Under the pieces are notes generated by a model, which saw nothing but the letters and a program-made list of their open reading frames with translations, was not told the origin of the DNA and did no database searches. A program made the position numbers and the translations under genes. A stretch of DNA of 64,000 nucleotides from an uncultured Thermoplasmata archaeon (lineage in GTDB: Archaea; Thermoplasmatota; Thermoplasmata; UBA10834), in assembly GCA_963719945.1 (NCBI GenBank), contig CAVRDX010000001.1, positions 672,001 to 736,000 of the forward strand, written 5' to 3'. The stretch's first letter is position 1. Each line of letters begins with the position of its first letter. This document shows positions 1 through 58,452 of this stretch, in pieces.

Positions 1-2773
1 GAAACCGCAGGGAAGGAGGAATGCGACAGGCTGCTCGTGACCGCGGAAGAGAAGATGGACAAGGTCAGACAGTTCGGAGGAGACCCTTCGGACCTGGAGA
101 TCCTCATCACGAGGTCGAAGGAGTCCATCGAGAAGAAAGTATACGAGGATGCTTCTGCGACCGCTAGGGGAGTCATCACGAACGCGGATGACATGATCAC
201 CAGGCTACTGCAGGCAAAATTCTCCGGCATCAAAGACTTCCTCGAAGAAGCGAAGTCCATTGGAATAAGCGTGAACGAATCGAAGACAGCAATAAAGGAT
301 GCTCGTGCCAAGTTCGAACAGAAGGATTATGACGGAGCCAATTCCCTGATTTCAGAAACTCGGTCTTCCCTAGAGGACAAGATCAGGAGATACGACGGAA
401 TAAAGGAGAAGATACGAAGAGCTGAGGACCTCGTAGAGGAGGCACAGAAGAGCAAAGCCGATGTCACAGATCAGGCCAAGGACCTTGGGCTCGCGAAGAG
501 ATACTTCCAGGACAGCGATTTCGACGCATCTGAGAAATTGCTGGATTCGCTCACAGAGGAGGCCGAGAAGAAGCTAGCCATGTACCTGGCCGCCAAGTTC
601 ATCCTCACCTCCAAGGAGAGCATCGAACTCGCCCAGTCATATGAGATCGACATGTCCGAGGGCAAGGAGATGCTGGGAGAGGCCAAGGATCTGATGAAGA
701 AGAAAGAATATGACCAGGCACTCGCCGTCGCGAAACGGTGTGAAGACATCGTCCGCCAGAAGACGGCAAATGGCGTATCAGAGATGATCAAGGAACTCCA
801 GAGACTGCTTACTGATGCCAAGAACTGTCGGTGTGGACACCAAGGGTCCAGAGACGCTCGCAGAGAAGGCAGTCATCCTGTGGAAGACTGGAGATTATGT
901 CGAGGCGCTCAGATGCATCGACTCGGCCAGGAACGACATAGACCAGATAAAGAACCTCAGTTCCCAGGCAGCGATCGAGATAAAGGTCGCAAGAGGCAAC
1001 CTCAAGAACGCCGAGACACTCGACATGGATGTAGGCCAGGCAAGGGAACTCCTGGAGCAGGCAGTCGAGGCATTGACCCGTCATCAATATGCTATCGCTC
1101 TTGAGCTCGCAAAGAAGTCATCGGAATCATCTTCAGAAGTCACCAGGAATACGATCTGGAACACCCTCGAAAGGTTCAAGGACCGCGTGGAGAAGGCTGC
1201 AAACGAGGGCGTCTCTGTCGGAATGGCAGAGAGATTAGTCGCCGAGGGAATCCAGGCATTCAACGAGGAGCGTTTCCAGGATGCACTGAAGCTTGCCATG
1301 AACTGCGAGGCCGAGATGGAGAAGGCTGAGCTGCAGAAGGAGATCAGCACCAGGGCAGTCGAAATGGCACGCATGAAGCTTATTGAAGCCGCCGAAGACG
1401 GAATAAGCGCGCCTGAGATCGAGCAACTTGTGAAGGAGGCGGAGGCGTTGCTCTCCGAAGGCAGGTATGTCGACGCTCTCGGGAAGTCGATCGAGAGCGG
1501 CGACGAGATCCACCTGATCAGGGAGAACATGGACAGCTCGAGGATCGAACTGAGTTCGGTCAGAGAGCAGGTCGATCGACTGAAAAAGGTCGGCATCGAC
1601 ACAACTGAGTGCGAAGAGATTCTCACCGAGGCGCAGAGATACCTCACAGCTCATGAGTTCAGGAAATGCACGGAATCTTTGACGAAATGCTCAGAAAGGA
1701 CCATGGAATTGTTCGAAGGATCTATTGATAAGATAATGGATGAGAACAACGACTTGATATCCAAAGCGAAGTCGATGGGCCTCAGCGTCAAGTCTTGCGA
1801 GGATCTGATGGAAGTCGCCAAGACCTCGTTCTCGGAGAAACTGTGGGACTTCGCGTATCAGCAGGCGGTCTCCTGCAGGACCATTTCCAAGGAACTCATC
1901 GAGAAGAAGCTCGCGAACCTTGTATCAGATGTCCGCGAGAGGCTACAGCCGTTGAGAGATTCAGGAGCTTCCGTTCGTTCCATAGAGGAACTCCTGGACC
2001 AGGCACATCAGGCTTCGGACGAGAACAATACGTCGGAAGCATTCCAGCTCCTCATGGAGGCCGACCAGAGGATTCTCGGAGTTGAGGACTCGCACAAGAA
2101 ATTCATAGACATCTCGATAGCTGCAGAAAGCGCTATAGAGATACTGAAGAGAATCGGAGTTCCGACGGGCGAATCGGAGAAATTGCTCGCACTCGCGGAT
2201 CTGGAGAGGGACAAGGATTACGATTCTGCCATCGAGTTCGTCGCAGAAGCCCTGGATTCGGCAAAGAGCACAATAGAATCACATTCCCCAGACATCACCG
2301 GGACGATAGAATCGTCCGGACTTCAGGAGAATGCTGAAGGTGAAGTCGACATCACACTCAAGAACACCGGCAATGTCCTTGCCAAGGAGGTCACGATGCA
2401 GCTTTCTGGGCAGTTCGAAGCTGTGGACACACCCAGGATCGGAAGCCTGAAACCCGGTACAGACATACTTGTCCGGGCCAGGATAGTCCCACATGCGTCA
2501 GGAGATATACCGATAAGGGTGAACATCACCTGCAAGCGGCACTTCGACGGCAGCCTCCTCAACTTCGAGTTAGAAGGCAAGGTGAGCGTCTTCTCCGCCG
2601 GTCCCCCATACACGGTCGGCCGCGCAGCCGAAGCGACCAAGTGCGCTCATTGTCAAGGCAAGATCAAGTCAGGATTCGATATCGTCACATGCAGATGCGG
2701 GAGCAAACTGCATCTCACCTGCGGCAAGAGAACAGCACAATGCCCGGTCTGCTCACAGAAGTTCTCCTTCTAG
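1..2773 (+). CDS. Giant alpha-helical repeat protein with C-terminal CARDB/Ig-like domain and C4HC3 RING-like zinc finger; 5'-truncated by the window edge; +1 frameshift at about 823-827
   Basis: Frame 1 is open from base 1 to ...LLTDAKN; the recurring 'AKxxGxD...A..LL..A..A....Y..AL' pattern continues in the +1 frame (VGVDTKGPE..., ORF 815..2773). C-terminus has ITLKNTGN...IGSLKPG and CxxC-x11-CxC-x4-HxxC-x6-CxxC. Confidence 0.75.
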
Positions 2774-4119
2774 GCCGATCCTGCAACTCTGGCATTGGAT
2801 ATTCTGAACGCCGGTGTCCTTACCCCGAAGTAGTCCTTAGTCTCCTTTCCGATCATGTCTATCCGCGAGAGCAGGTCGATCAGGCTTATCCCCACGGTTG
2901 ATTGGCGAATCGATGGTCCCAGGGCGCCATCCGCTATGACATAGCTCTCCATCATCAAACCAGAGAACTCGCCTGTGGCAAGGTTCGGGTGGTCGAAAGT
3001 GACCCTCAGATAGACGCCGCGGTCGCTCTCCTTGATCATCTCGTCCAGGCTCGAGTCACCACTCTTTACGACCAGGTTGGATGTGGATATCGATGGTGGA
3101 TGCCTATAACTCCATACCGCACCGCCTCTGGATGAATTGGCTGTGCTCTCGACTGAGTCTTTTCCAGCAGTATACGAATCATGAAGGTACGAGGATAGGC
3201 GGCCAGAGTCCACCAGAGTGGTCGGCCTCGCGACTGTACCCTCTCCATCGAACGAGGTGCTCCCAACTGCCCATTTGAGCAGGGGATCATCCACTATCGT
3301 GATTGATTCAGCTCCGATCCTCTGACCCATCTTTCCAGTGAGATAGCTCCGTCCACGCTGAACCGCTTCTGCGTTCGCTCCTCCGCCGATTGCGTCCGCC
3401 AGTATGATCCCAGCAGCGAGCGGATCCACCACGATTGCATAATCACCCGTCTCGACCTTGGTCTGACTGAGGCCGTTTATCGCATGCTCCCTGGCGCTAA
3501 TACCGGCACTGTCCAACTGGCTGAGGTCCAATCGACGCGAAGAAGAACCATCGAATCCAGAGAACATGGTCGAGTCCGAGCGAGCGACTGCCTCAGCGAA
3601 TACATCGAACGAAGACATCTCCTGTTCGGCTACCAGACCGTGGCTGTTCGCCATGGAGACCTGACAAACGGCCATTCCCAGACCAGCCATCACGGATGTT
3701 ATCCTCTTGTCGTCGCCAGCCACATCCGCGACTCGCGAGACCATCTCCACACCCGCATCGGGCGTTATATCCGAGACCTTGGGGTCGAACAGCCCGGGTA
3801 GGAGCCTGGGTTTGGATTGGCGGGGCAGACCTCTGAAGTCAGGGTCGGCAGTGCCAGACTTTGCCAGGGAGACTGCCAATTCGGCGGTCTTCTTGATGGA
3901 AGCAGGTTCATGGTCGGTGCAGAAGGCGAATCCAGAGGAGCCACCGCTGAACGCGCGGATGCCGACACCAGGGTCGATGGACGAACTGGCCTGCTTCACG
4001 GAACCCCTTTCGATCTCGACTGATATGGAATTGGTCTGAGCGACAATGACATCGCATTCGTCCGCGCCCAGTTTCATGACCGCCTTGACAGTCTCCTCTG
4101 ATAGGTACGCCAAAGTCAT
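2770..4119 (-). CDS. TldD/PmbA family protein, PmbA/TldE-like subunit
   Basis: FDGEG and ATGEFS motifs, no HExxxH; directly downstream of the TldD gene; start placed at MTLAYL after a GGAGG RBS. Confidence 0.9.
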   Translation of the reverse strand: MTLAYLSEETVKAVMKLGADECDVIVAQTNSISVEIERGSVKQASSSIDPGVGIRAFSGGSSGFAFCTDHEPASIKKTAELAVSLAKSGTADPDFRGLPRQSKPRLLPGLFDPKVSDITPDAGVEMVSRVADVAGDDKRITSVMAGLGMAVCQVSMANSHGLVAEQEMSSFDVFAEAVARSDSTMFSGFDGSSSRRLDLSQLDSAGISAREHAINGLSQTKVETGDYAIVVDPLAAGIILADAIGGGANAEAVQRGRSYLTGKMGQRIGAESITIVDDPLLKWAVGSTSFDGEGTVARPTTLVDSGRLSSYLHDSYTAGKDSVESTANSSRGGAVWSYRHPPSISTSNLVVKSGDSSLDEMIKESDRGVYLRVTFDHPNLATGEFSGLMMESYVIADGALGPSIRQSTVGISLIDLLSRIDMIGKETKDYFGVRTPAFRISNARVAGSA

Positions 4120-4130
4120 ATCATAGCCTC

Positions 4131-5525
4131 CTACGTAAGTCCTCCGACAACAATCTCGTCTATCCTCATATGCGGTCCACCATCGGTAGTCCTCGCAGAT
4201 TGACCATTCTTCCCGCAATATCCAGGATCGGTTATCTTGAAATCGTCAGCCAGGCCAGACACATGTCCCAAGACCTCCATGATAACTCCGGAGAGGGATG
4301 CGTCCCTGTATCTCTGGCCCAACTCACCCTTCACGATCTCATACGCCTCGTCACACTTGAACATGAACTGTCCTTTGGATGGCTCGACGTAGCCATATTG
4401 TGCACCCTTGATAAGCAGGCCGTTTGGAGTGTCCCTGACCAATTCCTCCCGGTCCCAATCGCCACCTGCAATGTATGTATTGCTCATCCGAATAATCGGA
4501 GGGCTGCCATAGCTCTCCGACCTGGCCGATCCGTTCGGAGGTATACCCATCCTGCTACTGGTCTCGAGGTTGTGCAGGAATCCTTTCAGTATACCGTTCT
4601 CAATGAGCACATGCTTCGATGATGGCACTCCTTCCCAGTCATACGAGAAATATCCGAACGAGCCCTCGACTGTAGGATCATCTATCAAGGACACCTCATC
4701 ACTCGCGACCTTCTCCCCGATCCGCCCTTCAAGCACGGATGCACCTTGAAGTATGGCATCAGCCTCGCATGCATGACCAAAGGCTTCGTGTGCGAGGAGA
4801 CCAGTCATCACATTATCGAGTATGCAAGTGAATTTGCCAGCTGGTGTCGGCTTAGAGTCCAGAAGACGCAGCGCCTGTTCCGCAGCGGTCCTTCCGATGG
4901 CAGCCGAATCGTCCTTTCGCATCAGTTCATAACCTCCCACCGAACCGACCGAATGATGCCCTCTCTGGATGACTTCGCCATCCTTCGCCCAGGCAGAACA
5001 CGCACCCAGAGTCCAAGTATCTTCCGTCCGAAGAAGGGTTCCGAACGAGTTCGCAACGATGCGAACACCCTCGAAATCATCATATCTGGCATTTGTGCTC
5101 GTTATCTTGGGGCTGAATGATTTCATCGACTTGTCAAGATCCATGACGTATCCTACTTTTTCCTCGACCGAGATCTCACCAGGTCGCTCGTCGCATCGAT
5201 AGACCTCGGTCGCATGTTCGGGTTTACCGGATTCGATCTCGAACTTTATCTTGGCCCTACTTTCGGCGACCTTTGCCATTCGGACTGCCGATTCAGCAGC
5301 CAAGCGCAGAGATTTCAATGAGAGATCGTTGGTGACGGCAAAACCCCATGCTCCACCCACGAATGCACGTATGCCACATCCCTTGGAAAGACGAGCCGTC
5401 ACGGTCTTCGTCTTTCCGTCCATGACAACGATGTTCGTTCCCAGGGAATCCTCCATTCGCAGGTCTGCGAACTGAGCGCCCATGCTAGTGGCATGCTCGA
5501 TTGTTTTCTGTGCGAAATCCTCCAT
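4131..5525 (-). CDS. tldD: TldD metalloprotease
   Basis: HEAFGHACEAD zinc motif, RMSNTY, CGKNGQ...GGPH C-terminus. Confidence 0.93.
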   Translation of the reverse strand: MEDFAQKTIEHATSMGAQFADLRMEDSLGTNIVVMDGKTKTVTARLSKGCGIRAFVGGAWGFAVTNDLSLKSLRLAAESAVRMAKVAESRAKIKFEIESGKPEHATEVYRCDERPGEISVEEKVGYVMDLDKSMKSFSPKITSTNARYDDFEGVRIVANSFGTLLRTEDTWTLGACSAWAKDGEVIQRGHHSVGSVGGYELMRKDDSAAIGRTAAEQALRLLDSKPTPAGKFTCILDNVMTGLLAHEAFGHACEADAILQGASVLEGRIGEKVASDEVSLIDDPTVEGSFGYFSYDWEGVPSSKHVLIENGILKGFLHNLETSSRMGIPPNGSARSESYGSPPIIRMSNTYIAGGDWDREELVRDTPNGLLIKGAQYGYVEPSKGQFMFKCDEAYEIVKGELGQRYRDASLSGVIMEVLGHVSGLADDFKITDPGYCGKNGQSARTTDGGPHMRIDEIVVGGLT

Positions 5526-5583
5526 CTGATACCCCCTTGAGGTGGCGGCGTAATACTTCCTTGGAATTCAACCTATCGCCGCA

Positions 5584-7137
5584 TCATGCCCTCTGAAACC
5601 CACACGTGTGTTCGACCGTATCCACGAACTCACCATCCAATATCATGCGAGCGACGGATTCGATGTCTCCTGACAGTGACCTGTCCTTGTCCAGCCTGGG
5701 CACCCTGGACCTGAGCAAGGACCGTATCTCCTGTATGGGTGCACTGGAAGGTCCGGAGATGAAATCGAGCGCCTGAGCGGCCGCAATCATCTCTATGGCG
5801 ATCACCCTGCTAACGTTCTCCACGATCGTCCTGGCCTTCCATGCGGCGATCGTCCCCATGCTATTGTAGTCCTCCTGGTTCGCACTGGTAGGGATGGAGC
5901 TCGCAGACGCAGGATGTACCAAGACCTTGTTCTCGGATACAATGGACGCAGCGACATACTGCGGCACCATCATGCCTGAGCTGACACCGCCGTGTTTGGT
6001 TAGGAATGGAGGAAGACCGCTCAGCTTGTGATCGACCAGACGGGCCACCCGTCTCTCAGAATAGCTTCCCAGCTCATGCACTGCAAGACCCAGAAAATCC
6101 ATCGCCAAGGCTAATGGTTGTCCGTGGAAGTTGCCACCAGAGATGACAGATCCGTCCTCAGGGAAGAACAGCGGGTTGTCAGTAGCGGAGTTCAGCTCCA
6201 CGCTTATGACATCGTCAGCATACCAGATTGCTTCGAGACTGGCCCCTATCACCTGTGGGATGCATCTGAGCGTGTACGCGTCCTGGACCTTCGAACAATG
6301 CTTATGGGAAAGCATGATCTCGCTTCCCTGGAGCATCGACACCATGTTCCCCGAGACCCGTACCTGGCCTGGATGAGGTCTCACCTTGGACACGCGAGGG
6401 TCGAACGCCATAGATGTGCCCTTGAGAGCCTCGAGGGACATAGCAGCGGCTATTTGTGAATTGTCTACGAGGATGGATGCATCATTCACGGCGAGCGCGC
6501 CGATGCCGCCCATCGCCTGTGTCCCGTTGATTATGGATATCGCTTCTTTAGGCTCGAGAGAGAGAGGCTCCAATCCTCGCCTTCCAAGAGCATCGATTCC
6601 AGGTTCCGGGCCGTTTCCAGCATCAGCCTCACCCTCACCCACCATGACCAGCCCGAGGTGTGCGAGCATCGTGAGATCCCCGCTCGCTCCTACAGAACCC
6701 TGACGCGGTATCAACGGATGGACCTTGGCGTTGAGCATCTTGGACAGCATCTCTGGCAGGTCAGGCCGTACGCCTGAGAATCCTTTGCACAGAGCATTGG
6801 CCCGAAGCAGCATGATCGCGCGGGAGACCTCGGCCGGATATTTCTCACCCACACCGCAAGCATGGCTTCGGAGAAGGTTGAGCTGGAGCGATTTCAGGTC
6901 CTTCTTGGAGATCCTGGCGTTTACCAGGTCTCCGACTCCCGTATTCACGGCATAAATCGTGGCTCCCTTCTCTACGAGTTTCTCGAGCGCCTTCCTGCTG
7001 GAGATCATCCTGTTCCGGGATTCTTCTCCGATCTGAACAGGCGCGAAACCTCTAGCTACCTTCACGACTTTATCGATGGTAAGACTGTTACCGTCGATGA
7101 CTACAGAGCCAGTGCCCTCATCCGCGTTTTTTGCCAT
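5584..7137 (-). CDS. hutH: Histidine ammonia-lyase
   Basis: MIO-forming GSVGASGDL, QDAYTLRC, SGGNFHG, NQED motifs; start trimmed to MAKNAD. Confidence 0.9.
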   Translation of the reverse strand: MAKNADEGTGSVVIDGNSLTIDKVVKVARGFAPVQIGEESRNRMISSRKALEKLVEKGATIYAVNTGVGDLVNARISKKDLKSLQLNLLRSHACGVGEKYPAEVSRAIMLLRANALCKGFSGVRPDLPEMLSKMLNAKVHPLIPRQGSVGASGDLTMLAHLGLVMVGEGEADAGNGPEPGIDALGRRGLEPLSLEPKEAISIINGTQAMGGIGALAVNDASILVDNSQIAAAMSLEALKGTSMAFDPRVSKVRPHPGQVRVSGNMVSMLQGSEIMLSHKHCSKVQDAYTLRCIPQVIGASLEAIWYADDVISVELNSATDNPLFFPEDGSVISGGNFHGQPLALAMDFLGLAVHELGSYSERRVARLVDHKLSGLPPFLTKHGGVSSGMMVPQYVAASIVSENKVLVHPASASSIPTSANQEDYNSMGTIAAWKARTIVENVSRVIAIEMIAAAQALDFISGPSSAPIQEIRSLLRSRVPRLDKDRSLSGDIESVARMILDGEFVDTVEHTCGFQRA

Positions 7138-7198
7138 CTCAAGACCGCCGAGTGATGTGCTGCAGTGATGAGTATTTGCGTACCTTAAACTAACGGCT

Positions 7199-7615
7199 CT
7201 ATTCCTTCTTCTCCAGTACGGGCACGAACTTGTACCCGTAATGGATAACGCCCGCGGACCCTTCCTCACTGAGCTTTCTGAGCACTGTGCGTACCCTGGT
7301 CCCAATCTTGAGGTCGCAGGCGTCACAGTCGATCACCTGACCGGTGATCTTCGGGCCCTCGTCGAGTTCCACCATTGCCACAAGGTACGGCTTCAGCGTG
7401 GCCCTCTCATCGACCCCTTCGTGCACCTCGGAGAATGAGAATATGACACCTTCGCCTTTGAACTTCAACGGTTCGATCTTGCCCACGCTCTTCCTGTGGC
7501 AGATCGGACAGATAGCCCTGGGCGGGAAGTAGTTCTTGCCGCAGCTGTTGCACTTTATCCCAACAAGATTGTACCTGCTGGGATTCTGTCTCCAGAATCT
7601 AGGTGCTGTTGCCAT
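7199..7615 (-). CDS. DUF35 zinc-ribbon/OB-fold scaffold of the thiolase/HMG-CoA synthase complex
   Basis: CxxC...FPPR.xCPxC, YGYKF C-terminus; adjacent to thiolase. Confidence 0.92.
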   Translation of the reverse strand: MATAPRFWRQNPSRYNLVGIKCNSCGKNYFPPRAICPICHRKSVGKIEPLKFKGEGVIFSFSEVHEGVDERATLKPYLVAMVELDEGPKITGQVIDCDACDLKIGTRVRTVLRKLSEEGSAGVIHYGYKFVPVLEKKE

Positions 7616-7617
7616 TC

Positions 7618-8790
7618 TCAAGACCTCCTGAATATGTGTACGATGACTGTCGCGCCAGTCCCTCCGACGTTATGAGTCAGACCGACCGACGCATCCTTGA
7701 CCTGTCGTTTCCCAGCTACGCCTCTAAGCTGGGTCACTACCTCGACGGCCTGCGCAAGACCCGTTGCGCCAATCGGATCGCCCCTGGCCTTCAAACCTCC
7801 CGAGGTGTTGATCGCGATCTCTCCGTCGAGTGCGGTCCTACCATCCTCGGTCGCCTTTCCACCCTCACCCTTCTTGAAGAATCCGAGATCCTCTATCGCG
7901 AGTATCTCGCTTATCGTGAAGTTGTCATGGACCTCTGCCACGTGGACATCCTTCTGCTCAAGGCCGGCTCTCTTGAACGCCTTCTTCGCGGCTATCCTTG
8001 TGGCATCCATGGTGAGTATGTCGCGCCTGTGATGGAGTGCCAGAGTGTCACTCGCCTGCCCGGAACCTATGATCTCGACGGGGGTCTCCACATATTTCTT
8101 CGCATCGTCCAACGGACATAGCACGACCGCTGCTGCGCCATCTGAGCTGGGTGAGCAGTCGAATACGCGCAACGGGTCCGCTACGAGCGGAGAATTGAGG
8201 ACGACATCCCTGTTGATCTCCTTCTGGAACTGCGCTTTCGGATTCAGCGAGCCGTTCTTGTGGTTCTTCACCGCGACATCCGCGAGCTGCTCCCTGGTCG
8301 TTCCGTACTCGTGCATGTGCCTTCTCGCTATCAGGGCGTGAAGGCTCGAGAAAGTGGCACCCAACTCCGTCTCCCATTCTTGGTCCGATGCTGAGGATTG
8401 GATCATCGAGGACGCGATGTCGCTGACATCCATCATCTTCTCGGCACCACCGACTACGACTATATCATGAAGGCCAGACGCGACCGCCATGAAGCCTTGT
8501 CTGAGGGCGAGCCCACCGGATGCTCCAGCAGCCTCCACCCTGGTTGCAGGGATATGGTCCCTTGCCAGACCCGCATAGTCTGCGATCAACGCGCCTATAT
8601 GCTCCTGCTCGATGAATCTGCCAGCAGACATGTTTCCGACGAACACCGCATCTATCATCTCCGCGGATATCTTCGCATCCTCGACTGCGGCCAGACCGGC
8701 ACGTATACCTATATCCCTAAAGGAAGCGTCCCACAGTTCTCCGAACTTCGTGTCCCCTACACCGATGACTGCGACCCGTCTCATGTTCAT
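7618..8790 (-). CDS. Archaeal acetyl-CoA acetyltransferase (thiolase)
   Basis: [33 protein letters not shown]; operon with HMG-CoA synthase and DUF35. Confidence 0.9.
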
Positions 8791-9839
8791 CCCCTCCCAA
8801 GGGTTATCTTGCCTCTGAATTTTGCATAGGTGGCATAATCGAGATACTTTGGATTGGCGAGCTGCTCCTTCACCGTAGGTGCACGATCCCGTTTGTAGTT
8901 CGAAATCTCGTCTGTAACCGTTATATCGAAACCATCCGAGCCAGCACCTGAACCGTATGCTATGGCGAAGATGCGGTCTCCCGGTTTAGCCTCATCCAGG
9001 ATCGCAGCCAATCCCAACGGTACCGCTCCGGAGTAGGTGTTCCCGATATGGGGGACGATCAGGCCGAGCTTGCCCTGCGCCTCGTTGAACCCCAGCTGCT
9101 TGGCAACCCTGGTAGGGAACTTGCCGTTCGGCTGATGGAACACGGCATGAGCATAATCGCTCGGGGTCGTACCAGCCTTCTTCATCAGACCCTTCGCACA
9201 GCTCATTATGTGTTTGAAGTAGGCAGGCTCCCCTGTGAACCTCCCGCCATGGCTCGGGTACATCTGACCCTCCCGTCTCCAGAAATCTGGGGTATCGGTC
9301 GTGTATGAATATGTATGGTCTATCCTCGCGATGATCTTCTCAGCCCCGATCATATGGGCCGCACCGCCGGCAGATGCCGAGTATTCGAGCGCGTCGCCAG
9401 GGGCACCCTGTGAGGTATCCGCACCGATGGCCACACCATACTTCATCATGCCTGAGCCGACAAGACCCATGCATGTCTGAATGGCGGCCGTGCCCGCCTT
9501 GCACGCGAACTCAAAGTCCGCGACCGTCAGCTCTGGTGACGCTTCGATTGCTTCAGCGACTATCGTTCCTGAGGGTTTCACAGCGTATGGATGCGATTCC
9601 GAGCCGACATAGATGGCTCCTATATCCTTCGGGTCAACATCCACGCGCTTCATCATGTTCCGGGCGGCCTCCACGGAGATCGTGATAGTGTCCTCGTCCG
9701 GCCCAGGGACCGATTTGCTGAATATCATCAGGCCCTTTCCCATCGCAGTTCCATCTATGCCCCACACTTTGCCGATCTCTTCCGGCTTGATCCTATAGCG
9801 TGGGACGTACGCTCCATAACTCACGATTCCTACTTCCAT
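8787..9839 (-). CDS. Archaeal hydroxymethylglutaryl-CoA synthase
   Basis: [18 protein letters not shown] (catalytic Cys), [21 protein letters not shown]. Confidence 0.95.
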
Positions 9840-9855
9840 CCGAATCCAGCCTCCA

Positions 9856-10539
9856 TCATCCTAGCGATTGGAGTATCTCGACCAGTTCACTTGCTGGCAG
9901 TTCCGTCCTCACGAGAGGAATGCCCTCCAGCTCTGCAAGCCTCACAGCCAGTTCGTCAACCTGCTCCGGCTTCTGATAAACTACCAGCGCAGGCTTGAGC
10001 GGATGGGCTCTGATGGCTATCATCGGTGAACGGCCGAATCTGACGCCAGTGAACACCAGCGCCCTCTGACTGCTCCAGCCATAGATCTTGAGGTAATCGA
10101 ACGAGCTGAGAGTCGTTATGGCTCTTATGCTGTCGATTATAGTGAACCCGTGGATGTGTTTGTCCAGAGATATGGCCGGCGTGAGGTTCTCACCCTTCAG
10201 CTTATCGACCAGGTCCGATGCGAGGACCTCCACGGAGAACTCCTTTATCGCGATTATCGATTCAGTCTTCGCAGCGAGCGAGTACTGCTTGAGGATAGAT
10301 CCGCCCGTCTTCTCGTCGATCTCAAGGAAGGCGTCGACGATCTTCCTGATGGTCGCGATTCCTGGCGATTTCCTCCTTCCGGCCTCGTAATCGCTTATGA
10401 CTGATGGCGAAATCCCAAGGTGCTTGGAGAGGTCCTGTTGAGAAATATTGAACTGTTCGCGCCACTTGCGTATCGTTCTGCCAGGCTCCTCAGAAAGGCA
10501 GATTTCTCCTGCGACTTTCTCCCTCACTTGGTCCCGCAT
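9856..10539 (-). CDS. XRE-family HTH regulator with DRTGG-like C-terminal domain
   Basis: [33 protein letters not shown]; GRSPMIAIR. Confidence 0.85.
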
Positions 10540-10791
10540 GCTCCATGGAGCTGAATGTCGGTACTTATAGTTTGTCGTACCTACTTTACGGCAATAGACG
10601 AACATTCTGAGAAGAGAGTGACCCACTTTCGAAACTGGATGCATGCATGGGCCGTAGATGATACACGTGAGATGTGCCCATGAATATTGACAATTCGATA
10701 TCTATGGTACGGATTAGGGGACATAAATCGAGTTTCGCATCATAGATATATAAGGGCCCTTCTGTTATCCCCTGACCGCCCACCACATACC

Positions 10792-10865
10792 GGGGTAGTG
10801 GTCTAGCTTGGTATGATCCGTGGTTCGGGACCACGTGACCGTCGGTTCAAATCCGACCTACCCCA
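10792..10865 (+). tRNA. tRNA-Pro(CGG)
   Basis: Acceptor GGGGTAG/CTACCCC, anticodon arm CGTGG-TT-CGG-GA-CCACG, T-arm GTCGG-TTCAAAT-CCGAC; TATA-like TATATAAG upstream. Confidence 0.96.
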
Positions 10866-10873
10866 CTCCAAGT

Positions 10874-13720
10874 CTAATTCTTGCGCGCTCTGCGGCCGTT
10901 CAACGCAGACATCAAGACGATGGCCAGAATCGCAATGACCGGTATCAGAATCGTCGAGAATTCCGGTATCGGTTCGCCCGTTATGGAGATATCCTCGGAA
11001 ACGATGCTGCATAGACCAGCACCATCAGTTATCTCGACCTTGACTGTGTACGTCCCAGGATATGAGTATGAATGTTCAGCAGTCAGCTCAGAGGACTTCT
11101 CGGTGTCCCACACGCCGTCCCCATCCCAGTCCCAGCGTATCAGGAGTTCGTCTACAGGGGTCTCTGCGTCAACCGACGATGAAGCATCGAACTCTATCTC
11201 GACACCTGTCAGCAGATCGATTGACATGACATCTAGCTGCGCCTCGGGCGCGTTGTTTATGAGCACGGATATCGTCGCAGAATCCCAGTCGACATCATAA
11301 TGCTCTAGAGCATCTGAGACTATCACCGAGACCACATAAGGCACATCAGAGGCGGTTGAGAATAGGTGTGAGAAACCGATCCGTGCAGATATCCCAGGCT
11401 CCGCCGTAGCATAGAATACCTCCAAAGAGGTGCCGTCAGTGAAATCGACAGACAGCATCATTTCATCCCCTTCTTCATCGGATGCCGTTATATTGAACCA
11501 GACTGTGGATCCTGGCACATAGTATGCGCTCGCCGGTGTATGCTCAATCGATAAGATCAGAGGCTTGAGATTGGACTCGTCCACGACAATGATCGCACTG
11601 TCGCTGATATTGTTGCCCTCGCCGTCATCGATAAACGCCATCAGCTCGAATGACTCAACGGAGAGATATACATGAGATGCAGAGTAATCAGACAGCGGAG
11701 CGCCCATAGTCATTGACGACCCATCCCCCCAGTCATACCAGACAGACACTACTGTACCGATTGCGTACTCCAGCACAGGTGTTATCGAGAAGACTTCGTT
11801 GTAGGTTGCCACATATGACGGTTCGATAGATATCGACGGTGGTGCAGTGGCGGCAGATGAGATCACAAGATTGTCGATCCAACCGCAGTCATCGAGACTG
11901 CTGCCAGATATATCCTTTGAGTAGGTCCACCTTATGGTGAATTCGCCCGAGCTGAGAGAGAATTCTTCTGCAGTCCAATCGACCGAACCGCTCATCCTGT
12001 CTATCACACCTGTGCCGTCGACCTCGAAACTGAGCCAATCAGCATCAGATTGAGAAGACACTTTCCAGTCGAACGAAATGTCTGCAGGGCCCATGATCGT
12101 CATCGCCAGCGAAGAACTGCTCGAATCGCCCACATTACCGCTCTGGAGCGAATCTCCGTCTACGCTGTATTCATGATCGACTCCAACCCATTCTGCGGAT
12201 CCGCTTCCTGTCGCAGTCACATCATCGACGTCCAGCGCATCGCTGAGGGTAATCGGCGAATAATAAGGAAACTCGACAGATACTGATGCAGGTATGGCCA
12301 AAGGGACCTCAGGTGACTGACCTGATGACTGTGAGGCAACGCCTGGAAGATAGGACGATTCGTAACGCTCGATCTTGAAGGAAGATAAGCTCGACTTGCC
12401 GGGCGAGGATCCGATGGAAAGCTCGAAACTATCGGAAGAAGTTGGGTATATGTCTTCGAACTCCGAGATGTCCAGGCACATGAAAGTCGGGTAGCCGTTG
12501 CTGATATCAGGCTCGAAATAGGGAATCTTCACATCAAGGATGGTTGCATCCCCTATGGAGAGTCTGGTCATGGCACTCCTCGAGGGAGACTCATCGAACT
12601 GCCAGATTGCCAGGAGAGTAGGCGAATAATCCACGATATCGACTATGAAGTTGGCCGTTAGGATGCCGAGCGTGCCCAGTTCCTCAATCGCATCGAACGT
12701 GATCCAGTAATATCCGTGGTCCCCCCAAGAAGCGCCCCAGGAATTGACAACTCGGAATGCGCCCAGGTCACCGTCGTCAGATATGGTCTCGTCGTAGCCG
12801 ACGATAGTCTGCGCATGATTCAGGCTGAGGGATGAATATTCTGAAGAAGATATGATGAAGTTGCCGTCTGAGAATCCTGAGCTGTATTCGTTGGCGTCGA
12901 AGCCAAATGTCACAGGAACCCCATCATTCAACATCTGCTTTATCACATCTATGGTCGATGACCCCGAATAGCTGATGTATCCCGCTTCATACGCTCTGTG
13001 AAGTGGTGCTTCTCGGAATGCGTCCTCGGAACCCCAGCTAACGGAGTCGGTGTCATCATATGGCATGGTAGCCAGAGTGGTCACTCCCCAATCGACAGCA
13101 ATCCACATGTTCTGATCGACCCATGACCCGGAATCACGGCCACCATTCACCATGTTATATGTCCAAGCAGGGGAGAGTAGTTGCTCAGGGTTCCCCAAAC
13201 TCGCCTCAGTCCATCCGTTGTCCTCCGCCTCCAAGAATCCATAGGCATAATAGGTCGCGGCCCAAGCAGAGCAAGAACCCTGTGATTCCTGGTTTCCGAC
13301 AATCGGGAAGGTTGAACGGGTCGAAAGATCGAAAGATGTCGGGAGGGCCTCCAAAGAATACGCAGCCTCATCCAAGACCACTTGACTCCCCTCAATGCTA
13401 TCCAGATATTCGACTGAAGGGGCGGTCAGACCAGTACCATGACCATCAATCACTGTGAGCGCGTCCGATGACGAAGATGTTCTCTCCGCTGCTGCCCTCA
13501 TGGCAGCAACATCGTCTGCGTTAGCCAAACGTAATGGAATTCTGGAATGACTGAGGACAGAGGAGGTCGATTGCAGCGCATCATCAGCAAATTGTCCTGT
13601 TGATGAAATCTGAAAATCCGATGATAAACTTGCACTTCCACCCAATATCGAGGTCATGATGACAAGGCAGCAGAGCGCAAGCGCAGGGATCCATATATTG
13701 ACTGAACGGAGTCTAGACAA
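10874..13720 (-). CDS. Secreted papain-like (C1) cysteine peptidase with PKD domains and a PEF-CTERM sorting signal
   Basis: N-terminal signal; QESQGSCSAWA, NHAQTIVGY, VNSWG catalytic motifs; YDWGDG/WDWDGDG and HSYSYPGTY PKD motifs; ends PIPEF + TM helix + RRARKN. Confidence 0.9.
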   Translation of the reverse strand: MSRLRSVNIWIPALALCCLVIMTSILGGSASLSSDFQISSTGQFADDALQSTSSVLSHSRIPLRLANADDVAAMRAAAERTSSSSDALTVIDGHGTGLTAPSVEYLDSIEGSQVVLDEAAYSLEALPTSFDLSTRSTFPIVGNQESQGSCSAWAATYYAYGFLEAEDNGWTEASLGNPEQLLSPAWTYNMVNGGRDSGSWVDQNMWIAVDWGVTTLATMPYDDTDSVSWGSEDAFREAPLHRAYEAGYISYSGSSTIDVIKQMLNDGVPVTFGFDANEYSSGFSDGNFIISSSEYSSLSLNHAQTIVGYDETISDDGDLGAFRVVNSWGASWGDHGYYWITFDAIEELGTLGILTANFIVDIVDYSPTLLAIWQFDESPSRSAMTRLSIGDATILDVKIPYFEPDISNGYPTFMCLDISEFEDIYPTSSDSFELSIGSSPGKSSLSSFKIERYESSYLPGVASQSSGQSPEVPLAIPASVSVEFPYYSPITLSDALDVDDVTATGSGSAEWVGVDHEYSVDGDSLQSGNVGDSSSSSLAMTIMGPADISFDWKVSSQSDADWLSFEVDGTGVIDRMSGSVDWTAEEFSLSSGEFTIRWTYSKDISGSSLDDCGWIDNLVISSAATAPPSISIEPSYVATYNEVFSITPVLEYAIGTVVSVWYDWGDGSSMTMGAPLSDYSASHVYLSVESFELMAFIDDGEGNNISDSAIIVVDESNLKPLILSIEHTPASAYYVPGSTVWFNITASDEEGDEMMLSVDFTDGTSLEVFYATAEPGISARIGFSHLFSTASDVPYVVSVIVSDALEHYDVDWDSATISVLINNAPEAQLDVMSIDLLTGVEIEFDASSSVDAETPVDELLIRWDWDGDGVWDTEKSSELTAEHSYSYPGTYTVKVEITDGAGLCSIVSEDISITGEPIPEFSTILIPVIAILAIVLMSALNGRRARKN

Positions 13721-13899
13721 GCTCCACCTTACCAGACATTAGACTCGCATCAATCATTATTAGCTTTGCGCATGAATGCAGGACGAGAATGCGTTGGATT
13801 GGATGAATCTAGACAATGAATATGATCCTAGCCCATTGGAAAAGGGCCAAGTATCGTGATATAAATGTATTTATCAAAGAATGTGTTTCCTCGGCTCAA

Positions 13900-14012
13900 G
13901 CAGGTGTAATCTAGTCTGGTTAGGATTTTGGCCTTCCAACTACTCCAATGAAGAAAACAAAATTGGAGAGGGACGAAAGCCAACGGCCCGGGTTCGAATC
14001 CCGGCACCTGCA
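13900..14012 (+). tRNA. tRNA-Gly(TCC) with a 39-nt intron (13939..13977) at 37/38
   Basis: Acceptor GCAGGTG/CACCTGC; anticodon stem TTGGC/GCCAA, loop CT-TCC-A|A; intron hairpin CTCCAAT/ATTGGAG; T-arm CCGGG-TTCGAAT-CCCGG. Confidence 0.92.
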
Positions 14013-14071
14013 CTCTCGGCCCTTTGGGTTTCTGTCTGATCGTACAGCTTAGGAGCGTGCACTACTAGACC

Positions 14072-14263
14072 TTACTCACCGTCTCCATAGACAGGTGTAT
14101 GGGCAAGGGCGAAGGCGTCATCGAATCTCCGAGCCTCGGCCAATGCCAACTGCGGCACTATGCAATGTGGATGAAACTCGATCGTTCTTCTGTGTTGTTC
14201 CATTGGATCGCAGTATTCTGCGAACTCGCCATTGTGTTGCTTTAGTTTCCTGGTTCTGAACAT
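14072..14263 (-). CDS. Small hypothetical protein (about 63 aa)
   Basis: ATG preceded by AGGTGG, which overlaps the upstream stop; no recognisable motif. Confidence 0.5.
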   Translation of the reverse strand: MFRTRKLKQHNGEFAEYCDPMEQHRRTIEFHPHCIVPQLALAEARRFDDAFALAHTPVYGDGE

Positions 14264-14272
14264 TGTGTCCAC

Positions 14273-14554
14273 CTATCCCGCGATTTCTGCGTACTCACAT
14301 ACCTCAGGAACTGGCTCCGTTTCCGGATGCAGGCCATGGTCGATCGCCTTCAGATCATCCAGCAGTTCGACGATGTCCATGACATCTTCTCCTAGACCAG
14401 ACATCTCGTTAACGAGATCCTCAAGGTCCTGAAGCGTGTGGGTTTTCACCCATTCGATTGCCTGGGCGTTCAGTGTCGCCTGTGCCGCATTCCTGCGTCT
14501 CATTGCATCCCATCCCAAGTGGTTTGTCTGACGATTTGTCAGCTGAATTCCCAT
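14273..14554 (-). CDS. Small acidic helical hypothetical protein (start 14554 or 14503)
   Basis: Amphipathic ORF with a TATA-like element upstream, coupled to the next ORF. Confidence 0.55.
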   Translation of the reverse strand: MGIQLTNRQTNHLGWDAMRRRNAAQATLNAQAIEWVKTHTLQDLEDLVNEMSGLGEDVMDIVELLDDLKAIDHGLHPETEPVPEVCEYAEIAG

Positions 14555-14828
14555 ATATCGGTTCCGAATATTTAGCTTTTGCCAATATGTCGCATTCCAC
14601 ACATGCGATTCGTCTGACCATCATAGGCACCCAACAAATGAAATCTCGTAGAGATTTATTGCGCTGGACCATGTGATTCTGACTACACATCGGCGATTAA
14701 TGACATCCTCCGCGTCAGACGAAAAGAATAAAATCAACATACATGCATCTCCTGCCACCGTTGGAACGTTCTGGAAACGCTTTTAACGAGACACATCATT
14801 AAGCAAAGAAAGCCAGGGTGGATGGCAC

Positions 14829-17800
14829 TTGGGTCTATTGGATTCGCTGCTCAGCAAGGAGAAGAAAACCCTCTCCAAGGCAAAGAAAGGGATAGAGAAA
14901 GCGGACACGCTGGAGAAGAGTGGCCGCAAGGATGAAGCTAAGAGTGTCCTCGACCAGACAGGCGCCATGCTTAGAGAGAATCTCGTTTTCGTCGAGAAGC
15001 TGCATAGCGATTTCTCGGAGACTTTCGCAACGCTCGGTGAGAGATATCTCGTTCTAGATAACGCACAGATTGCACACGATGCTGCAACCGTATCATTACA
15101 GCTGGATGCCACAAACCCAGAGGCGATGGGAGTCGCGGGGAGGGCCGCCCTGAGGATGGGGAGGAAGGAGGAAGCAATCGAGTGGCTGAAGAAGGCAGTC
15201 ACAGCCGCCCCAAACTCCGCGGACCTATGGTCGATGCTCGGCGATGCTCAGGAGGCGATCGCCGATGTCGAAGGCGCGATTGCAAGCTACAGGAAGGTCG
15301 TCGAGATCACACCTGATAGCATACGTCATTATGAGAAGATACTCGCGCACCTGCCCAAAGAGACCGAGCTCATGAAAATGAAGGCGCAGGCACAGACGCG
15401 CATGCACAAGTTCGATGATGCGGGCCGGACATACAGAGCAGCCATCGATGTGGACCGCAGAGACAAGGACCTTTGGATCGGGAACGCTGCAGTCCTCAAT
15501 TATGCTGGCAAGAGCGAGCAAGCCATTGATTCGCTCGAGAAGGCGCTCGAGCTGGCCCCGAACGACTCGTTCATCTTGGACAATCTTGGGAGGGTCCAGC
15601 ACAAGATCGGAAGACGTGATGACGCACTCAAGAGCTTCTCCAAGGCAATCGAGATCGACAGCGGTAACAAGGTGATATGGAACGAGCTTGGAGTGGTTCA
15701 GGAAGAGCTCAAGATGCTCGACGAGGCCATCCAATCGTTCGATAATGCCCTTGCCATTGACCCGAACGACATCAATGTTCTCAACAACAAGAAGAAGACC
15801 CTGCTCAAGGGCGACCACATGGCCGAGGTACTCGAGACCTGCGATAGGATTATTGTGCTCAACCCGAAGGATTCCGAAGCTTTGCTGGACAAGGCGAAGG
15901 CGCTGAGGTCGCTCAACAGATACTCGGAGTGCCTCAACTTCACAGAGGCCTCATTGACCATTGCGCCAAAGGCCAGAGACGCGATGAACCTCAAGAAGGA
16001 TTGCCTCATGAGGCTCAACAGGTACTCCGAGGTCGTCTCATGGTGCAACAAGATGCTTTCGATCGACCCATCAGATTACGATACCATGCACGATAAGGGC
16101 ATTGCCCAGATGAAGATGGGAAGACCTCAGGACGCCGTCAAGACCTATGAGAAGGCACTGAAATCTGCGCCACACAAGCTCGAGATCCTGGAGAGCCTCC
16201 GGGATGCTTACAATGTCCTGAACAAATACGATGAAGTCATAGACACATGCGACAGGATAATCGGAGTCGACCCGAAGAACAAGCGGGCATATCTTGAGAA
16301 GGCACTGGCACTGGATAAGAAGGACCGGATCGACGATGCGCTCGTTGCATACATGGCCGCCCTGAAACACGACCGCAAGAACATGGACATATTCCTGAAT
16401 GCCGCATCAATGTTGAAACGGGCAGGGAAGCACAAGGAAGCGATGGATTATGCCAAGCAGGGCTTGTCGCTCGATCCGGACAACACAGGACTCTTGAGGA
16501 TCCGAGGCGAATCGGCATACTTGTCAAATGATTTCGAATCGGCAATCGAATCACTCCAAAGGTGCGTCAGCATAGACCAACACGACAAGAACGCGTACAG
16601 GTTCTTAGGACAATCGCTGGTCGAGCTGAAGAGTTATGAACAGGCATTGGCGGCCTACGACCACGCACTCACGTTAGACCCCAGAGATGCTGACATCCTA
16701 TTCATCAAAGCGGTTGCGCTGGAATGGCTCGACAGGACGGAGGACGCGTTGAAAGCCGCGAAGGAGGCGGTCCATTGGAATCCGTATCAAGCAGACTTCA
16801 CGCTCAAAATGGGAACCCTGCTCACCAAACTCGGACGTCTCGAGGAGGCGCTGGAGGCGTACGGTGTGGCGCTAGCCAGTTCGCCCAAGAATATCGAGGC
16901 ACTGAAGGCGAAGAACAGCATCCTGAAATCTCTCAAGCGACATGAAGAGGTCGTTAACACAAGCGATGAGATCCTCGCGATATCCTCCAAGGACAAGGAT
17001 GCTCAGATAGACAAGGGCGGCGCATTGTTGTTGCTGAAGAGACCTGGTGATGCACTCGTGTGCTTCGACCGAGCCCTCGACGTCGACAAGGACGACCTCG
17101 ATGCCCTGGAACTCAAGAAGACCGCGCTCAAGGAACTCAAGGATGACGAGGGCATCGTTACCACATGTAAGAGGATACTGGACCTGAGCCCGAAGAACAA
17201 ACACGCGATGGCGGACTGCGCCGGCTCGCTCGAGAACCTCGAGAAGGTGGAGGAGGCGATTGGATACTACGAGAAGGCACTGGCCCTGGACGCAACGGAC
17301 GTCTTCCTATGGAACAAGAAGGGATTGGCCCTTCTCGGCAGCGGAAACCCAGCTCAGGCCGCTGAAGCCTTCGATCAAGCGGTCAAGATCGATTCTAACC
17401 AGCCATATGTGCTGAACAACCGTGGCAAGGCATACCTCGAACTACGGCGATTCAAAGAGTCGCTGGAAGACTTCAACAAGGCGATCACAATCATATCTAA
17501 TACGCCCGAATTCCACATAAACAAGGGAAGGGCGCTCGCGAGCCTGGGCAACTTCGACGAGAGCATAGACTCGTTCAACGAGGCCAGGCGTCAGGCGCCC
17601 AATGACGCCTCCGCCCTCAAGTACATGGGCATGGCGCTCCTCAAGCTCAACAGGATACCCGACTCGCTCGGATCATTCGATGAGGCCATCAAACTGGGTC
17701 TCAACGACAAGGATGTCTGGATCGGGAGGGCCAAGGCATGCGAGGCCATGGGCAAGAAGGAGGAGGCCGTCCGCTCATATGCCACGGCACTGGACCTAGA

Positions 17801-19271: not shown

Positions 19272-19290
19272 ATATCAGCCAGGTGATTCA

Positions 19291-22400: not shown

Positions 22401-23469
22401 TCACCATTCGGGTTCGAGGGATACCTTGGCAGCCTGCTTGGTGCGTATGAGCTCCATGCCCTCCTCGATATCCCTGATGGGTAAGGTATGCGTTATGATA
22501 GATGTAAGCTTAGCCTTGAAATCGTCGTTCTTGAGGATCTCACGCATCTGGTCCCATGTCCTGAACATCCTTCTTCCGGTTATCCCGTAGACAGTGGCGG
22601 ATTTGAAAGTGATAGCGTTGTTGATGTCCAGTGTGACTGGGTCGTTGTACAGACCGAGGATCGATACTCTTCCCCCAGGCGTCAGCATCTGGAACACCTG
22701 CTTCAACGCAGGAGCAGCACCAGACATCTCGAGAGCCACATCCGCACCGTTTCCATCGGTGTGCTCCATGACGGACCTGACCAGCCTATCGGTACCCATG
22801 GAAGCATCGAGCACGACATCCGCTCCAAGGCTCCTAGCCAAGGAAAGCCGAACCTCTTCGCTGCCAAGTTCAGTTGCGATTACCTTGCCTGCACCAAGGA
22901 CCTTGAGCACGGCTATTGCCATCAATCCGATCGGGCCGCATCCAGCGACGACCACATTCTTTCCCTTGATGTCTTCCTCGCATTCGCTTCCGAAAACCGT
23001 GAAGGTGGCGTTGCCGAGAGGCTCTAGCACAGAACCGAGACTGATATCGATCCCGTCGGGGATCTTCATCGCGTTCATCTCTGGAAGGCGGACATATTCA
23101 GCGAAGACTCCATCAGTGTCGACGCCCAGTATCTTCATGTTCTTGCATATGTGCATGCGACCGTTCCTGCACTGGTAGCATGTACCATCGACGATGTGGG
23201 TCTCGGCCGATACGATATCTCCCACCGATATCTTCGTCACCCCTTCGCCGATCTCGACTACCTCGCCGCAGAATTCGTGACCGAAGATGATCGGAAGAGT
23301 CTTGACCCGGTTCTGAGCCCAGTGATTCCAATCCCATATGTGCACATCAGTGCCACAAATGGATGTCCGCTTCATCTCGACCAGGACGTCTCCTCTGCCA
23401 ACTGATGGTTTGTCGACAGTTCTCGAAACCCGCGCCGGGCTCCCTCATTCTCTTTACCACCGCGTGCAT
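22401..23469 (-). CDS. tdh: L-threonine 3-dehydrogenase, with a +1 frameshift near codon 17 (about 23414-23423)
   Basis: SICGTD, GHEFCG, structural zinc ligands, GCGPIG, GITGR. The N-terminus MHAVVKRMREPGAGFE (ATG 23469) joins VDKPSVGRGDVLVEMK only through a +1 shift. Confidence 0.88.
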
Positions 23470-56133: not shown

Positions 56134-57888
56134 TCATCGGCCCCAGAACGGCTTGTCCTTCCTCTTTATCTCGGCGATCTTCTCGAAGACCTCTATCTCG
56201 TCCTGCTTCAGCCCGAACTTCTCAAGCTGGAGAGCATGGCTCCCAGGTATGTCGACATAGAGAATATCCTCGACATCGATCTGCCTGCCCACCGTGACAT
56301 CGTCGATCGCTATGGCCACTTCGCTGCCGGCCAGGGCCTCCGGAACCGAATTCTCGCCGCTCCGGATGCTCTTTATCTTGCCTATCGGGCGTCCGTCGTC
56401 CTTCATCAGACCATGACCCGACCGAATCCGTCCTGCGAGCACTCTGACACCGACAATCGCGGGTTTGCTCACGCGGAACACATGATCCCTCAGTATCAGG
56501 ATCTTTCCTGGGAAGACTATCTCGAGACGCTTTTCCACCTCGAGCGCGCGTGACCGCACCTCGCACCACGCCTTGTACTCATCCAGCAGGCGGTAGATGA
56601 CAGCGTTCTCGAACATCCTGACCCCTGTGGAGTCCAGCTCAGCCTGAACATCGGGGTTCGATCCCGCATTGAAATTGAATATGACCCTGTGGAGAGGGTC
56701 CTCGAAGTTCGATGCTTCCATGACATCCTTCCTCGTCACCTTTCCTATGCCGACCTTCCGTATGGGCAGTTCCGCATTCTTCGCCTCGAAGACGAGCGCT
56801 TCGAGCGACCCTATCGCATCCCCGCGGACGATGATGCCCTCACTAGCCAGCTCCACATTCAGTTCGCTGACCTTTCTGACCGCGTCCATCAGCTCCTCGA
56901 CGTTCTCGTTCGCGACGCGTAGGATACCACCAGCCATGGAATTCTCGAGGTTCTGGGCAACTATCCGTATCCCAGCTGCTGCGGATACCGTTTTGACCTG
57001 GTCGAATCTCTGCGAAGGATCTCTGATCTCATCCAGAGGTCTAGGTCTCAGCAGGGCCCGCACCTTGGTGAGTATCGGATCGCCTTTGACGGAAGTGATC
57101 AGGATCTGATCGCCGACATTGATGATACCTTTGTAGATGATGGTGTCCAATATGGTCCCAAGGCCCTGTTCCTCCTTTACTTCGAGCACTGTGCCTTCAG
57201 CAGGGCCATACTCGGTCTTCAGCTCGACGTCCAGGAACTTCTGGGCGAGTCCAACGAGCATCAGCAGCAGGTCCGGCAATCCCTCGCCATGCTTCCCACT
57301 TACCGGGACTATGGCGACGCTCTTGGTGAAATCGGTTATGTGATCGAACCGTTCGGCGCTCAGCCCGGTCTTCTCGAATATCTTCCCAGCGATGTTGTAT
57401 ATGCGCTGGTCCATATCCTCGACGACCCTTGGGTCCTGGAGAGCCAGAGATTCAGCAATCGTCATATCCGCGTGCACACGCCAGCCCATGAGACGGTCGA
57501 CTTTGTTGGCCGCTATAACGAACGGAGTGCGCAATTTCTTCAGGATATTGATCGACTCGAGTGTCTGCGGCTTCATGCCCTCGTTGATATCGATCACGAG
57601 GATTGCTAGGTCGGCCAACGCCCCCCCTCGGGTTCTGAGAGATGCGAATGAATAGTGTCCGGGTGTGTCGATGAACAGAAGACCTGGCACCATGAACTTT
57701 CTGTCACCAATGAGTGGACGACAGAGCTCGTAGATGGTCTCTATCGGAACATCCGTCGCACCTATGTGTTGGGTGATCCCGCCCGCCTCGCGGGACACCA
57801 CCTTGGTGCCCCTGATTCTGTCAAGGATAGTAGATTTGCCATGGTCAACATGGCCCATGACCGAAACTATGGGCTGCCGTATCGTCAC
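56134..57888 (-). CDS. infB: Translation initiation factor IF-2 (aIF5B)
   Basis: GHVDHGKS, EAGGITQHIGA, DTPGH, NKVD; GTG start. Confidence 0.97.
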   Translation of the reverse strand: MTIRQPIVSVMGHVDHGKSTILDRIRGTKVVSREAGGITQHIGATDVPIETIYELCRPLIGDRKFMVPGLLFIDTPGHYSFASLRTRGGALADLAILVIDINEGMKPQTLESINILKKLRTPFVIAANKVDRLMGWRVHADMTIAESLALQDPRVVEDMDQRIYNIAGKIFEKTGLSAERFDHITDFTKSVAIVPVSGKHGEGLPDLLLMLVGLAQKFLDVELKTEYGPAEGTVLEVKEEQGLGTILDTIIYKGIINVGDQILITSVKGDPILTKVRALLRPRPLDEIRDPSQRFDQVKTVSAAAGIRIVAQNLENSMAGGILRVANENVEELMDAVRKVSELNVELASEGIIVRGDAIGSLEALVFEAKNAELPIRKVGIGKVTRKDVMEASNFEDPLHRVIFNFNAGSNPDVQAELDSTGVRMFENAVIYRLLDEYKAWCEVRSRALEVEKRLEIVFPGKILILRDHVFRVSKPAIVGVRVLAGRIRSGHGLMKDDGRPIGKIKSIRSGENSVPEALAGSEVAIAIDDVTVGRQIDVEDILYVDIPGSHALQLEKFGLKQDEIEVFEKIAEIKRKDKPFWGR

Positions 57889-57996: not shown

Positions 57997-58452
57997 TCAC
58001 TTCTCGAACAGCCAACCCTCATCAGCGATTTCGTGCTTCTGAAGCTCGTAATCGTTGAAGAAGAGTTTGATCTCGCGCTTGGCACTCTCGGACGAATCTG
58101 ACCCGTGTATGATGTTCCTGCCAGTCACCTGACCGAAATCCCCTCGGATAGTCCCTGGTGCGGCGTCCTGCGGGTTCGTCTTGCCCATCATGGCCCTTGA
58201 GGCAGCAACACAGTTCTCGCCTTCGAGCACCATGCATACGACCGGACCGGATGTGATATAGGTCAGGAGATCGTCGAAGAATGCTTTTCCCTTGTGCTCC
58301 TCGTAATGCCTCTCCGCGAGCTCTCTGGGTATCCGCATCATCTTCATGGCGACGATCTTGATGCCTCGGTCCTCGAATCTCTGGACGATGCTGCCGATCA
58401 GACCTCGGGAGACACCATCGGGCTTGACCATTGCGAATGTCTTTTCGATCAT
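57997..58452 (-). CDS. ndk: Nucleoside diphosphate kinase
   Basis: [22 protein letters not shown]. Confidence 0.97.

Follow-up and report, generated by a model that had tools for sequence, protein, structure and literature searches.

Two frame breaks at one decamer

The DNA analysed here (the window, 64 kb, C1:672001-736000) is part of an archaeal genome (G000) represented by a 1.78-Mb assembly of 4 contigs, which is 87% complete. Two of its genes, encoding a giant helical-repeat protein and a zinc-dependent threonine/alcohol dehydrogenase family member (tdh), are each divided over two reading frames. The initial annotation of this sequence proposed that these genes, located 22.6 kb apart on opposite strands, each need a +1 shift to continue, and that they break at the same decamer, AGAACTGTCG, in the same codon phase. 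Frame translations confirmed the need for +1 in both genes, with both sites phased NAG-AAC-T-GTC-G. The features concerned are listed below, with the base that we regard as spurious given for each site.

1..825, + strand: upstream part of the giant helical-repeat protein gene, frame 1, continuing beyond the 5′ end of the window, last residues ...LLTDAKN
821..830, + strand: AGAACTGTCG site 1, in the giant repeat protein gene, base regarded as spurious T at 826
827..2773, + strand: downstream part of the giant protein gene, frame 2, VGVDTKGPE... through the stop codon
22401..23417, - strand: tdh body, zinc-dependent threonine/alcohol dehydrogenase family, 338 codons plus stop
23414..23423, - strand: AGAACTGTCG site 2, in tdh, base regarded as spurious T at 23418 (minus strand)
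23419..23469, - strand: tdh codons 1-17 (MHAVVKRMREPGAGFEN), the frame upstream of the T

These are the only two copies of the decamer in the window, where 0.18 copies are expected by chance, and two or more copies were found in none of 100 dinucleotide-preserving shuffles of the window. The frame of the giant protein is open for 2583 nt upstream of site 1 when followed in the whole genome, and within the window frame 1 stays open from 1 to 1104, but it encodes arginine-rich nonsense after ...LLTDAKN, with the helical repeat being carried on in frame 2 as VGVDTKGPETLAEKA... until the stop codon at 2773. Translation of tdh from the ATG at 23469 yields MHAVVKRMREPGAGFEN, and the body of the protein resumes as VDKPSVGRGDVLVEMKRTSICGTD in the +1 frame, with Pfam matches to ADH_N (2.7e-29) and ADH_zinc_N (2e-28).

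The complete giant protein (window 1-2773, + strand) would be approximately 1500 aa long and consist of helical repeats of about 62 aa each, with a CARDB-like Ig domain followed by a prokaryotic RING-like zinc finger at its end; both terminal domains are assigned from weak, sub-threshold Pfam matches in the downstream part (CARDB, Prok-RING_1 and TPR).

Two further sequences in the window served as controls.

56898..56906, - strand: AGAACGTCG, uncorrupted, in phase (E-N-V) in an unbroken 598-aa frame
58207..58218, - strand: GAG AAC TGT GTT in ndk (57997-58452, - strand), read straight as ...EGENCVA...

The first of these shows how both broken sites should read. Its presence in an unbroken frame, together with that of AGACTGTCG at 20460 in an open frame, agrees with the earlier statement that the possible corrected 9-mers occur unshifted elsewhere, and the translation of ndk likewise bears out that GAG AAC TGT GTT is read there in frame without a shift.

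Genome-wide distribution of the 9-mer

The initial annotation suggested scanning the genome for enrichment of the motif at +1 breaks, and this revealed a stronger pattern than had been claimed. The core motif AGAACTGTC is present in 19 copies in the G000 genome versus a Markov expectation of 18.4, and five of these copies are located at +1 breaks, every one phased NAG-AAC-T-GTC (the slash marks the break):

C1:27701, DUF2148 Fe-S protein, ...DGQN/VLDSD
C1:114678, ribosomal protein uS13, ...GIPKN/VKIGDL
C1:136031, Ras-like GTPase, ...TGEN/VEAAF
window site 1, giant repeat protein, ...DAKN/VGVD
window site 2, tdh, ...GFEN/VDKP

In uS13, an essential protein with a single domain, the Pfam Ribosomal_S13 model is matched over positions 1-39 before the break and 42-128 after it. 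The 9-mer also ranked first when 223 candidate regions for a +1 frame switch were screened without bias, the other recurrent 9-mers all being gene-junction signals, and a stricter likelihood scan for split points with a codon model, which retained 9 candidates genome-wide, placed the split exactly at T/GTC for both motif sites that passed. The recurrence of AGAACTGTC at +1 breaks is therefore real and highly non-random.

None of the 27 one-mismatch variants of AGAACTGTC had an excess of +1 breaks, nor did AGAACTGT followed by A, G or T give a convincing break in G000. Copies of the 9-mer on the antisense strand did not disrupt any gene on the opposite strand, and comparison of the flanks from -32 to +34 of the five affected sites with those of 74 unaffected sites gave no convincing shared determinant beyond the 9-mer. 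One of the antisense copies (G000:C1:820713-820721, where the + strand reads GACAGTTCT) lies in a region where a strongly coding frame of 921 nt is followed by an open frame of 1704 nt; the offset is -1 rather than +1, and the two frames are probably two overlapping neighbouring genes.

When the five broken copies are subtracted, G000 keeps 14 copies of AGAACTGTC, a number similar to that in its relatives. The three 8-mers that are candidates for the true sequence, AGAACGTC, AGAATGTC and AGACTGTC, are present in 74, 114 and 67 copies in G000, respectively, all at Markov expectation, and since they are not depleted, an error converting one of them cannot be universal. The shared phase of the breaks is accounted for by codon usage, because 41 of the 74 copies of AGAACGTC are already in the phase NAG-AAC-GTC on the coding strand; five insertions drawn randomly from AGAACGTC sites would often all share this phase.

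Independent public contigs lack the extra base at site 1

Logan contigs from four public metagenome runs were compared with positions 1-20000 of the window, a range which includes site 1 and ends before the tdh site; no RNA dataset was listed among the runs containing this sequence. Contigs from a freshwater sediment metagenome (run X1, study P1) represent the same strain, as they were otherwise identical to the window in the eight pieces listed, with one substitution in the run overall. Exactly one letter was missing from these contigs, the T at 826, which was the sole 1-nt indel over the covered parts of the 20 kb. A 95-99% relative in a soil metagenome (run X2, study P2) also omits 826, with record 10 spanning 504-957 with this single gap. 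All depth at 826 favours the deletion and no contig there carries the T, with one low-depth contig in each run (2.9, this being X1, and 4).

Without the T, site 1 reads AAG AAC GTC GGT, which restores K-N-V-G. A programmed shift supposes that the extra base is present in the DNA of the organism, and at site 1 it was absent in two runs from two studies; an assembly error predicts that other data from the same strain lack it, as X1 did at a depth of 2.9. Accurate reads lacking the extra base had been named in advance as refuting evidence, and at this site independent public contigs of low depth are now found without it. These contigs also fix the shift point, which had been placed by repeat and homology logic, to a single T, as they omit exactly 826.

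Searching JGI metagenomes with a pattern for the uS13 site gave nine matches, all without the T. Only two of them belong to uS13, and the remaining seven, located in unrelated sequence, are probably 20-mers that match by chance. The exact pattern for the tdh site, with the extra base optional, had no matches in JGI metagenomes. Elsewhere in the compared range, a contig of high depth (18.6) from X2 matched window positions 13898-14480 in short blocks only, with skips and clustered substitutions. This segment is probably conserved and present in other organisms too, as a very conserved protein or an RNA gene would be.

Orthologs are continuous, with one exception

An alignment of orthologs had also been proposed as a check, and it showed that the extra base is not conserved. 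The giant protein is encoded in one continuous frame in all five relatives that were compared, with a length of approximately 1510 aa where it is whole on a contig, and its orthologs read AAG AAC GTC GG or AAG AAT GTC GG at site 1. The tdh gene is continuous in 17 relatives, which read F/V/I-E-x-V-D, E and V being separated by a single residue x, and keep the N-terminus MHAVVKR.REPGA; the protein is 94-96% identical to the orthologs of the nearest relatives. The shift point is thus matched by orthologs at both window sites, as K-N-V-G at site 1 and as F-E-x-V-D at site 2.

The same holds for the other genes. In the three nearest relatives (G005, G006 and G010) the uS13 site is CCG AAG AAC GTC AAG and the DUF2148 site is CAG AAC GTC CTC, and the Ras-like GTPase reads GAG AAC GTC GAG in G006 and G010. 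The nearest orthologs have AGAACGTC at four of the five break sites. Neither the shift site nor the two-frame layout is conserved, as orthologs are continuous at all five sites with the sole exception of the GTPase of G005. From the ortholog sequences it follows that AGAACGTC is the ancestral and true string and that the inserted base is T.

The exception comes from G005, an assembly in 3 contigs that represents another species of the genus and carries the extra T at two sites:

G005:C3:271650-271658, - strand: orthologous Ras-like GTPase (L086), GAG AAC T GTA GAA
G005:C2:343210-343218, + strand: Lhr-like helicase (L080), ...KERGLEN/VGAHHGSLS...

At the position of the helicase break, G000 has an intact AGAACGTC, and conversely G005 has an intact AGAACGTC in the genes for uS13, the DUF2148 protein and the giant protein. 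The breaks are therefore confined to certain assemblies and to copies that differ between them, being present in G000 (4 contigs) and G005 (3 contigs) at partly different sites and missing from G006 and G010.

In-phase copies of the motif are read straight

A signal for programmed frameshifting would be avoided, in phase, in genes that are read straight, and this was not the case for AGAACTGTC. The dnaJ gene of G000 contains AAG AAC TGT CCA in phase, translated as K-N-C-P within a CxxCxGxG zinc finger that needs the Cys, and in relatives, too, the 9-mer is read through the DnaJ zinc finger in this phase. G006 and G010 contain 12 and 14 copies of AGAACTGTC, respectively, none of which is at a +1 break, and in each of these genomes two copies are in phase inside long unbroken genes. 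AAC-TGT-C in frame is read normally in at least four genes. In-phase copies in unbroken genes had been put forward beforehand as an argument against recoding, and they were found both in G000 (DnaJ) and in G006 and G010.

A slow A-site codon and/or a stimulatory element, as expected at a programmed site, was likewise not apparent, as TGT is an ordinary codon and the sites have no common flank beyond the 9-mer. TGT is used 983 times versus 2366 times for TGC in long ORFs (about 29% of Cys codons), and the active-site Cys of tdh is itself encoded by TGT. ARAGORN, with introns allowed, detected no tRNA with an expanded anticodon, and found ordinary tRNA-Asn (GTT), tRNA-Cys (GCA) and tRNA-Val (GAC, CAC and TAC). 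An apparent 4-base anticodon, 'cata', belongs to an intron-containing tRNA-Met. Genes for N6/N4 methyltransferases are present in all four genomes checked and a C5-methyltransferase gene in G000 only, a distribution that does not discriminate between causes.

Origin of the extra T

The extra T is almost certainly a context-specific 1-nt insertion error of the assembly, arising in sequencing or in the consensus and turning AGAACGTC into AGAACTGTC, because independent contigs of the same strain and the relatives lack it. The frame breaks are not a real biological feature: the observation of a recurrent motif is confirmed and its reading as recoding is rejected. From the three readings offered in the initial annotation, the contigs, the orthologs and the sporadic nature of the breaks favour a motif-dependent sequencing or polishing artefact, and they leave a programmed recoding site and a scar of a site-specific event without backing. 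In the organism, the two window sites and the three other genome sites would read NAG-AAC-GTC (x-Asn-Val) in frame, with all five genes intact and no recoding taking place. Read generation or consensus polishing would convert AGAACGTC to AGAACTGTC at about 5 of 79 sites (~6%) in G000 and at two or more copies in G005. These assemblies of few contigs probably derive from long reads, and the cause may be a weakness of the basecaller or polisher for this k-mer, possibly worsened by base modification in its ACGT core. The breaks recur at a single k-mer, all five at AGAACTGTC, whatever the function of the gene and with essential genes included, as expected for an error of this kind. Several points weigh against an artefact: with 5 of 79 AGAACGTC sites affected, the error must be highly context-specific and incompletely penetrant; G000 and G005 have the extra T in common at the orthologous GTPase site, which could reflect inheritance of a real insertion; and the contigs at 826 number one per run, each of low depth.

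Real 1-nt insertions in the DNA of the assembled strain, due to a mutational hot spot or a site-specific enzyme acting at AGAAC^GTC and leaving genes broken or phase-varied, would accommodate this common GTPase insertion as inherited, and would also fit the non-random recurrence of one insertion at one 8-mer across five genes. We nevertheless consider such insertions very unlikely, as the X1 contigs, which show no other difference in the eight listed pieces, are without the T, the essential uS13 would be inactivated, two close relatives (G006 and G010) show no insertions, and the other orthologous AGAACGTC sites affected in G000 differ from those in G005. The earlier suggestion of a 1-nt scar left by a site-specific event has found no support. 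Programmed +1 frameshifting at NAG-AAC-U-GUC, in which the U of UGU is skipped after Asn and GUC (Val) is read, perhaps depending on the supply of Cys-tRNA, draws on the five breaks with identical phase and 9-mer, on genes that are otherwise intact, one of them essential, and on a codon-model split exactly at T/GTC. The phase is explained by codon usage, however, and such frameshifting is extremely unlikely when independent contigs, from the same strain and from a related one, lack the T at site 1 and all orthologs lack it at four of the five sites (G005 alone shares it at the GTPase site), when DnaJ and two genes in each of the close relatives contain the in-phase 9-mer unshifted, and when UGU is not rare and no common flanking element extends past the 9-mer. 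The cysteine-sensing form of recoding raised in the initial annotation falls on the same absence from public contigs, continuity of orthologs and unshifted in-phase copies.

A combined scenario, in which the insertions are real in the G000 lineage and in G005, ribosomes skip the U at NAG-AAC-U-GUC, and the contigs without the T represent co-occurring strains, is in our view highly improbable. If true, it would constitute a lineage-specific +1 recoding signal acting on multiple genes in an archaeon, with ribosomal protein uS13 among them. Quadruplet decoding, in which an expanded-anticodon tRNA reads for example AACU as Asn or UGUC as one residue, would look identical, being a one-base skip at a fixed four-letter word, but its probability is close to negligible given that only ordinary tRNAs were found (with 'cata' explained by the tRNA-Met intron), that AAC-TGT-C in frame is decoded normally in at least four genes, and that the public contigs without the T at 826 count against it as well.

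Comparison with known systems

Programmed +1 frameshifting is known from bacterial prfB, at CUU-UGA-C, and from yeast Ty3, at GCG-AGU-U, where no slippage takes place and the +1 codon is read by the incoming tRNA. On paper the sites described here resemble Ty3, with one base being passed over, the next codon (GUC) read in the +1 frame, and a fixed heptamer. Unlike the shift sites of prfB and Ty3, they are not conserved in orthologs, have neither a rare or stop codon in the A-site nor a stimulatory element, occur in phase without shifting elsewhere, and depend on a base that is missing from independent sequence.

Nanopore assemblies are documented to contain systematic consensus errors tied to sequence motifs, Dcm CCWGG sites being one example (Wick et al. 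2019, PMC6591954; BMC Genomics 2025, PMC12392509). In the published cases, short methylation motifs mostly carry substitutions or errors in homopolymer length. As in those assemblies, a single context recurs here regardless of the gene, survives into the consensus and strikes essential genes, while being absent from independent data and relatives and present in some assemblies only. In contrast to the documented errors, the change is an inserted T that separates C from G within an 8-mer and affects about 6% of the copies.

Annotation of this archaeon should accordingly treat the genes for the giant repeat protein, tdh, uS13, the GTPase and the DUF2148 protein as intact. The artefact closely mimics a programmed-frameshift signal, in motif and phase as well as in its presence in essential genes, and scans for recoding on long-read metagenome-assembled genomes should first vet recurrent motifs against independent reads and orthologs. 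The conversion of AGAACGTC to AGAACTGTC in one 8-mer context makes up a considerable fraction of the few frame breaks in an otherwise clean and highly contiguous assembly.

Among the remaining candidate +1 breaks in G000, those at C1:491426 and C1:426155 (+ strand) have good coding signal on both sides and do not contain AGAACTGTC, their contexts being gacaaga/CTCGGAGG and atctacg/CTGTACGTC, respectively. Further indels of the assembly, or closely spaced gene junctions, could explain them.
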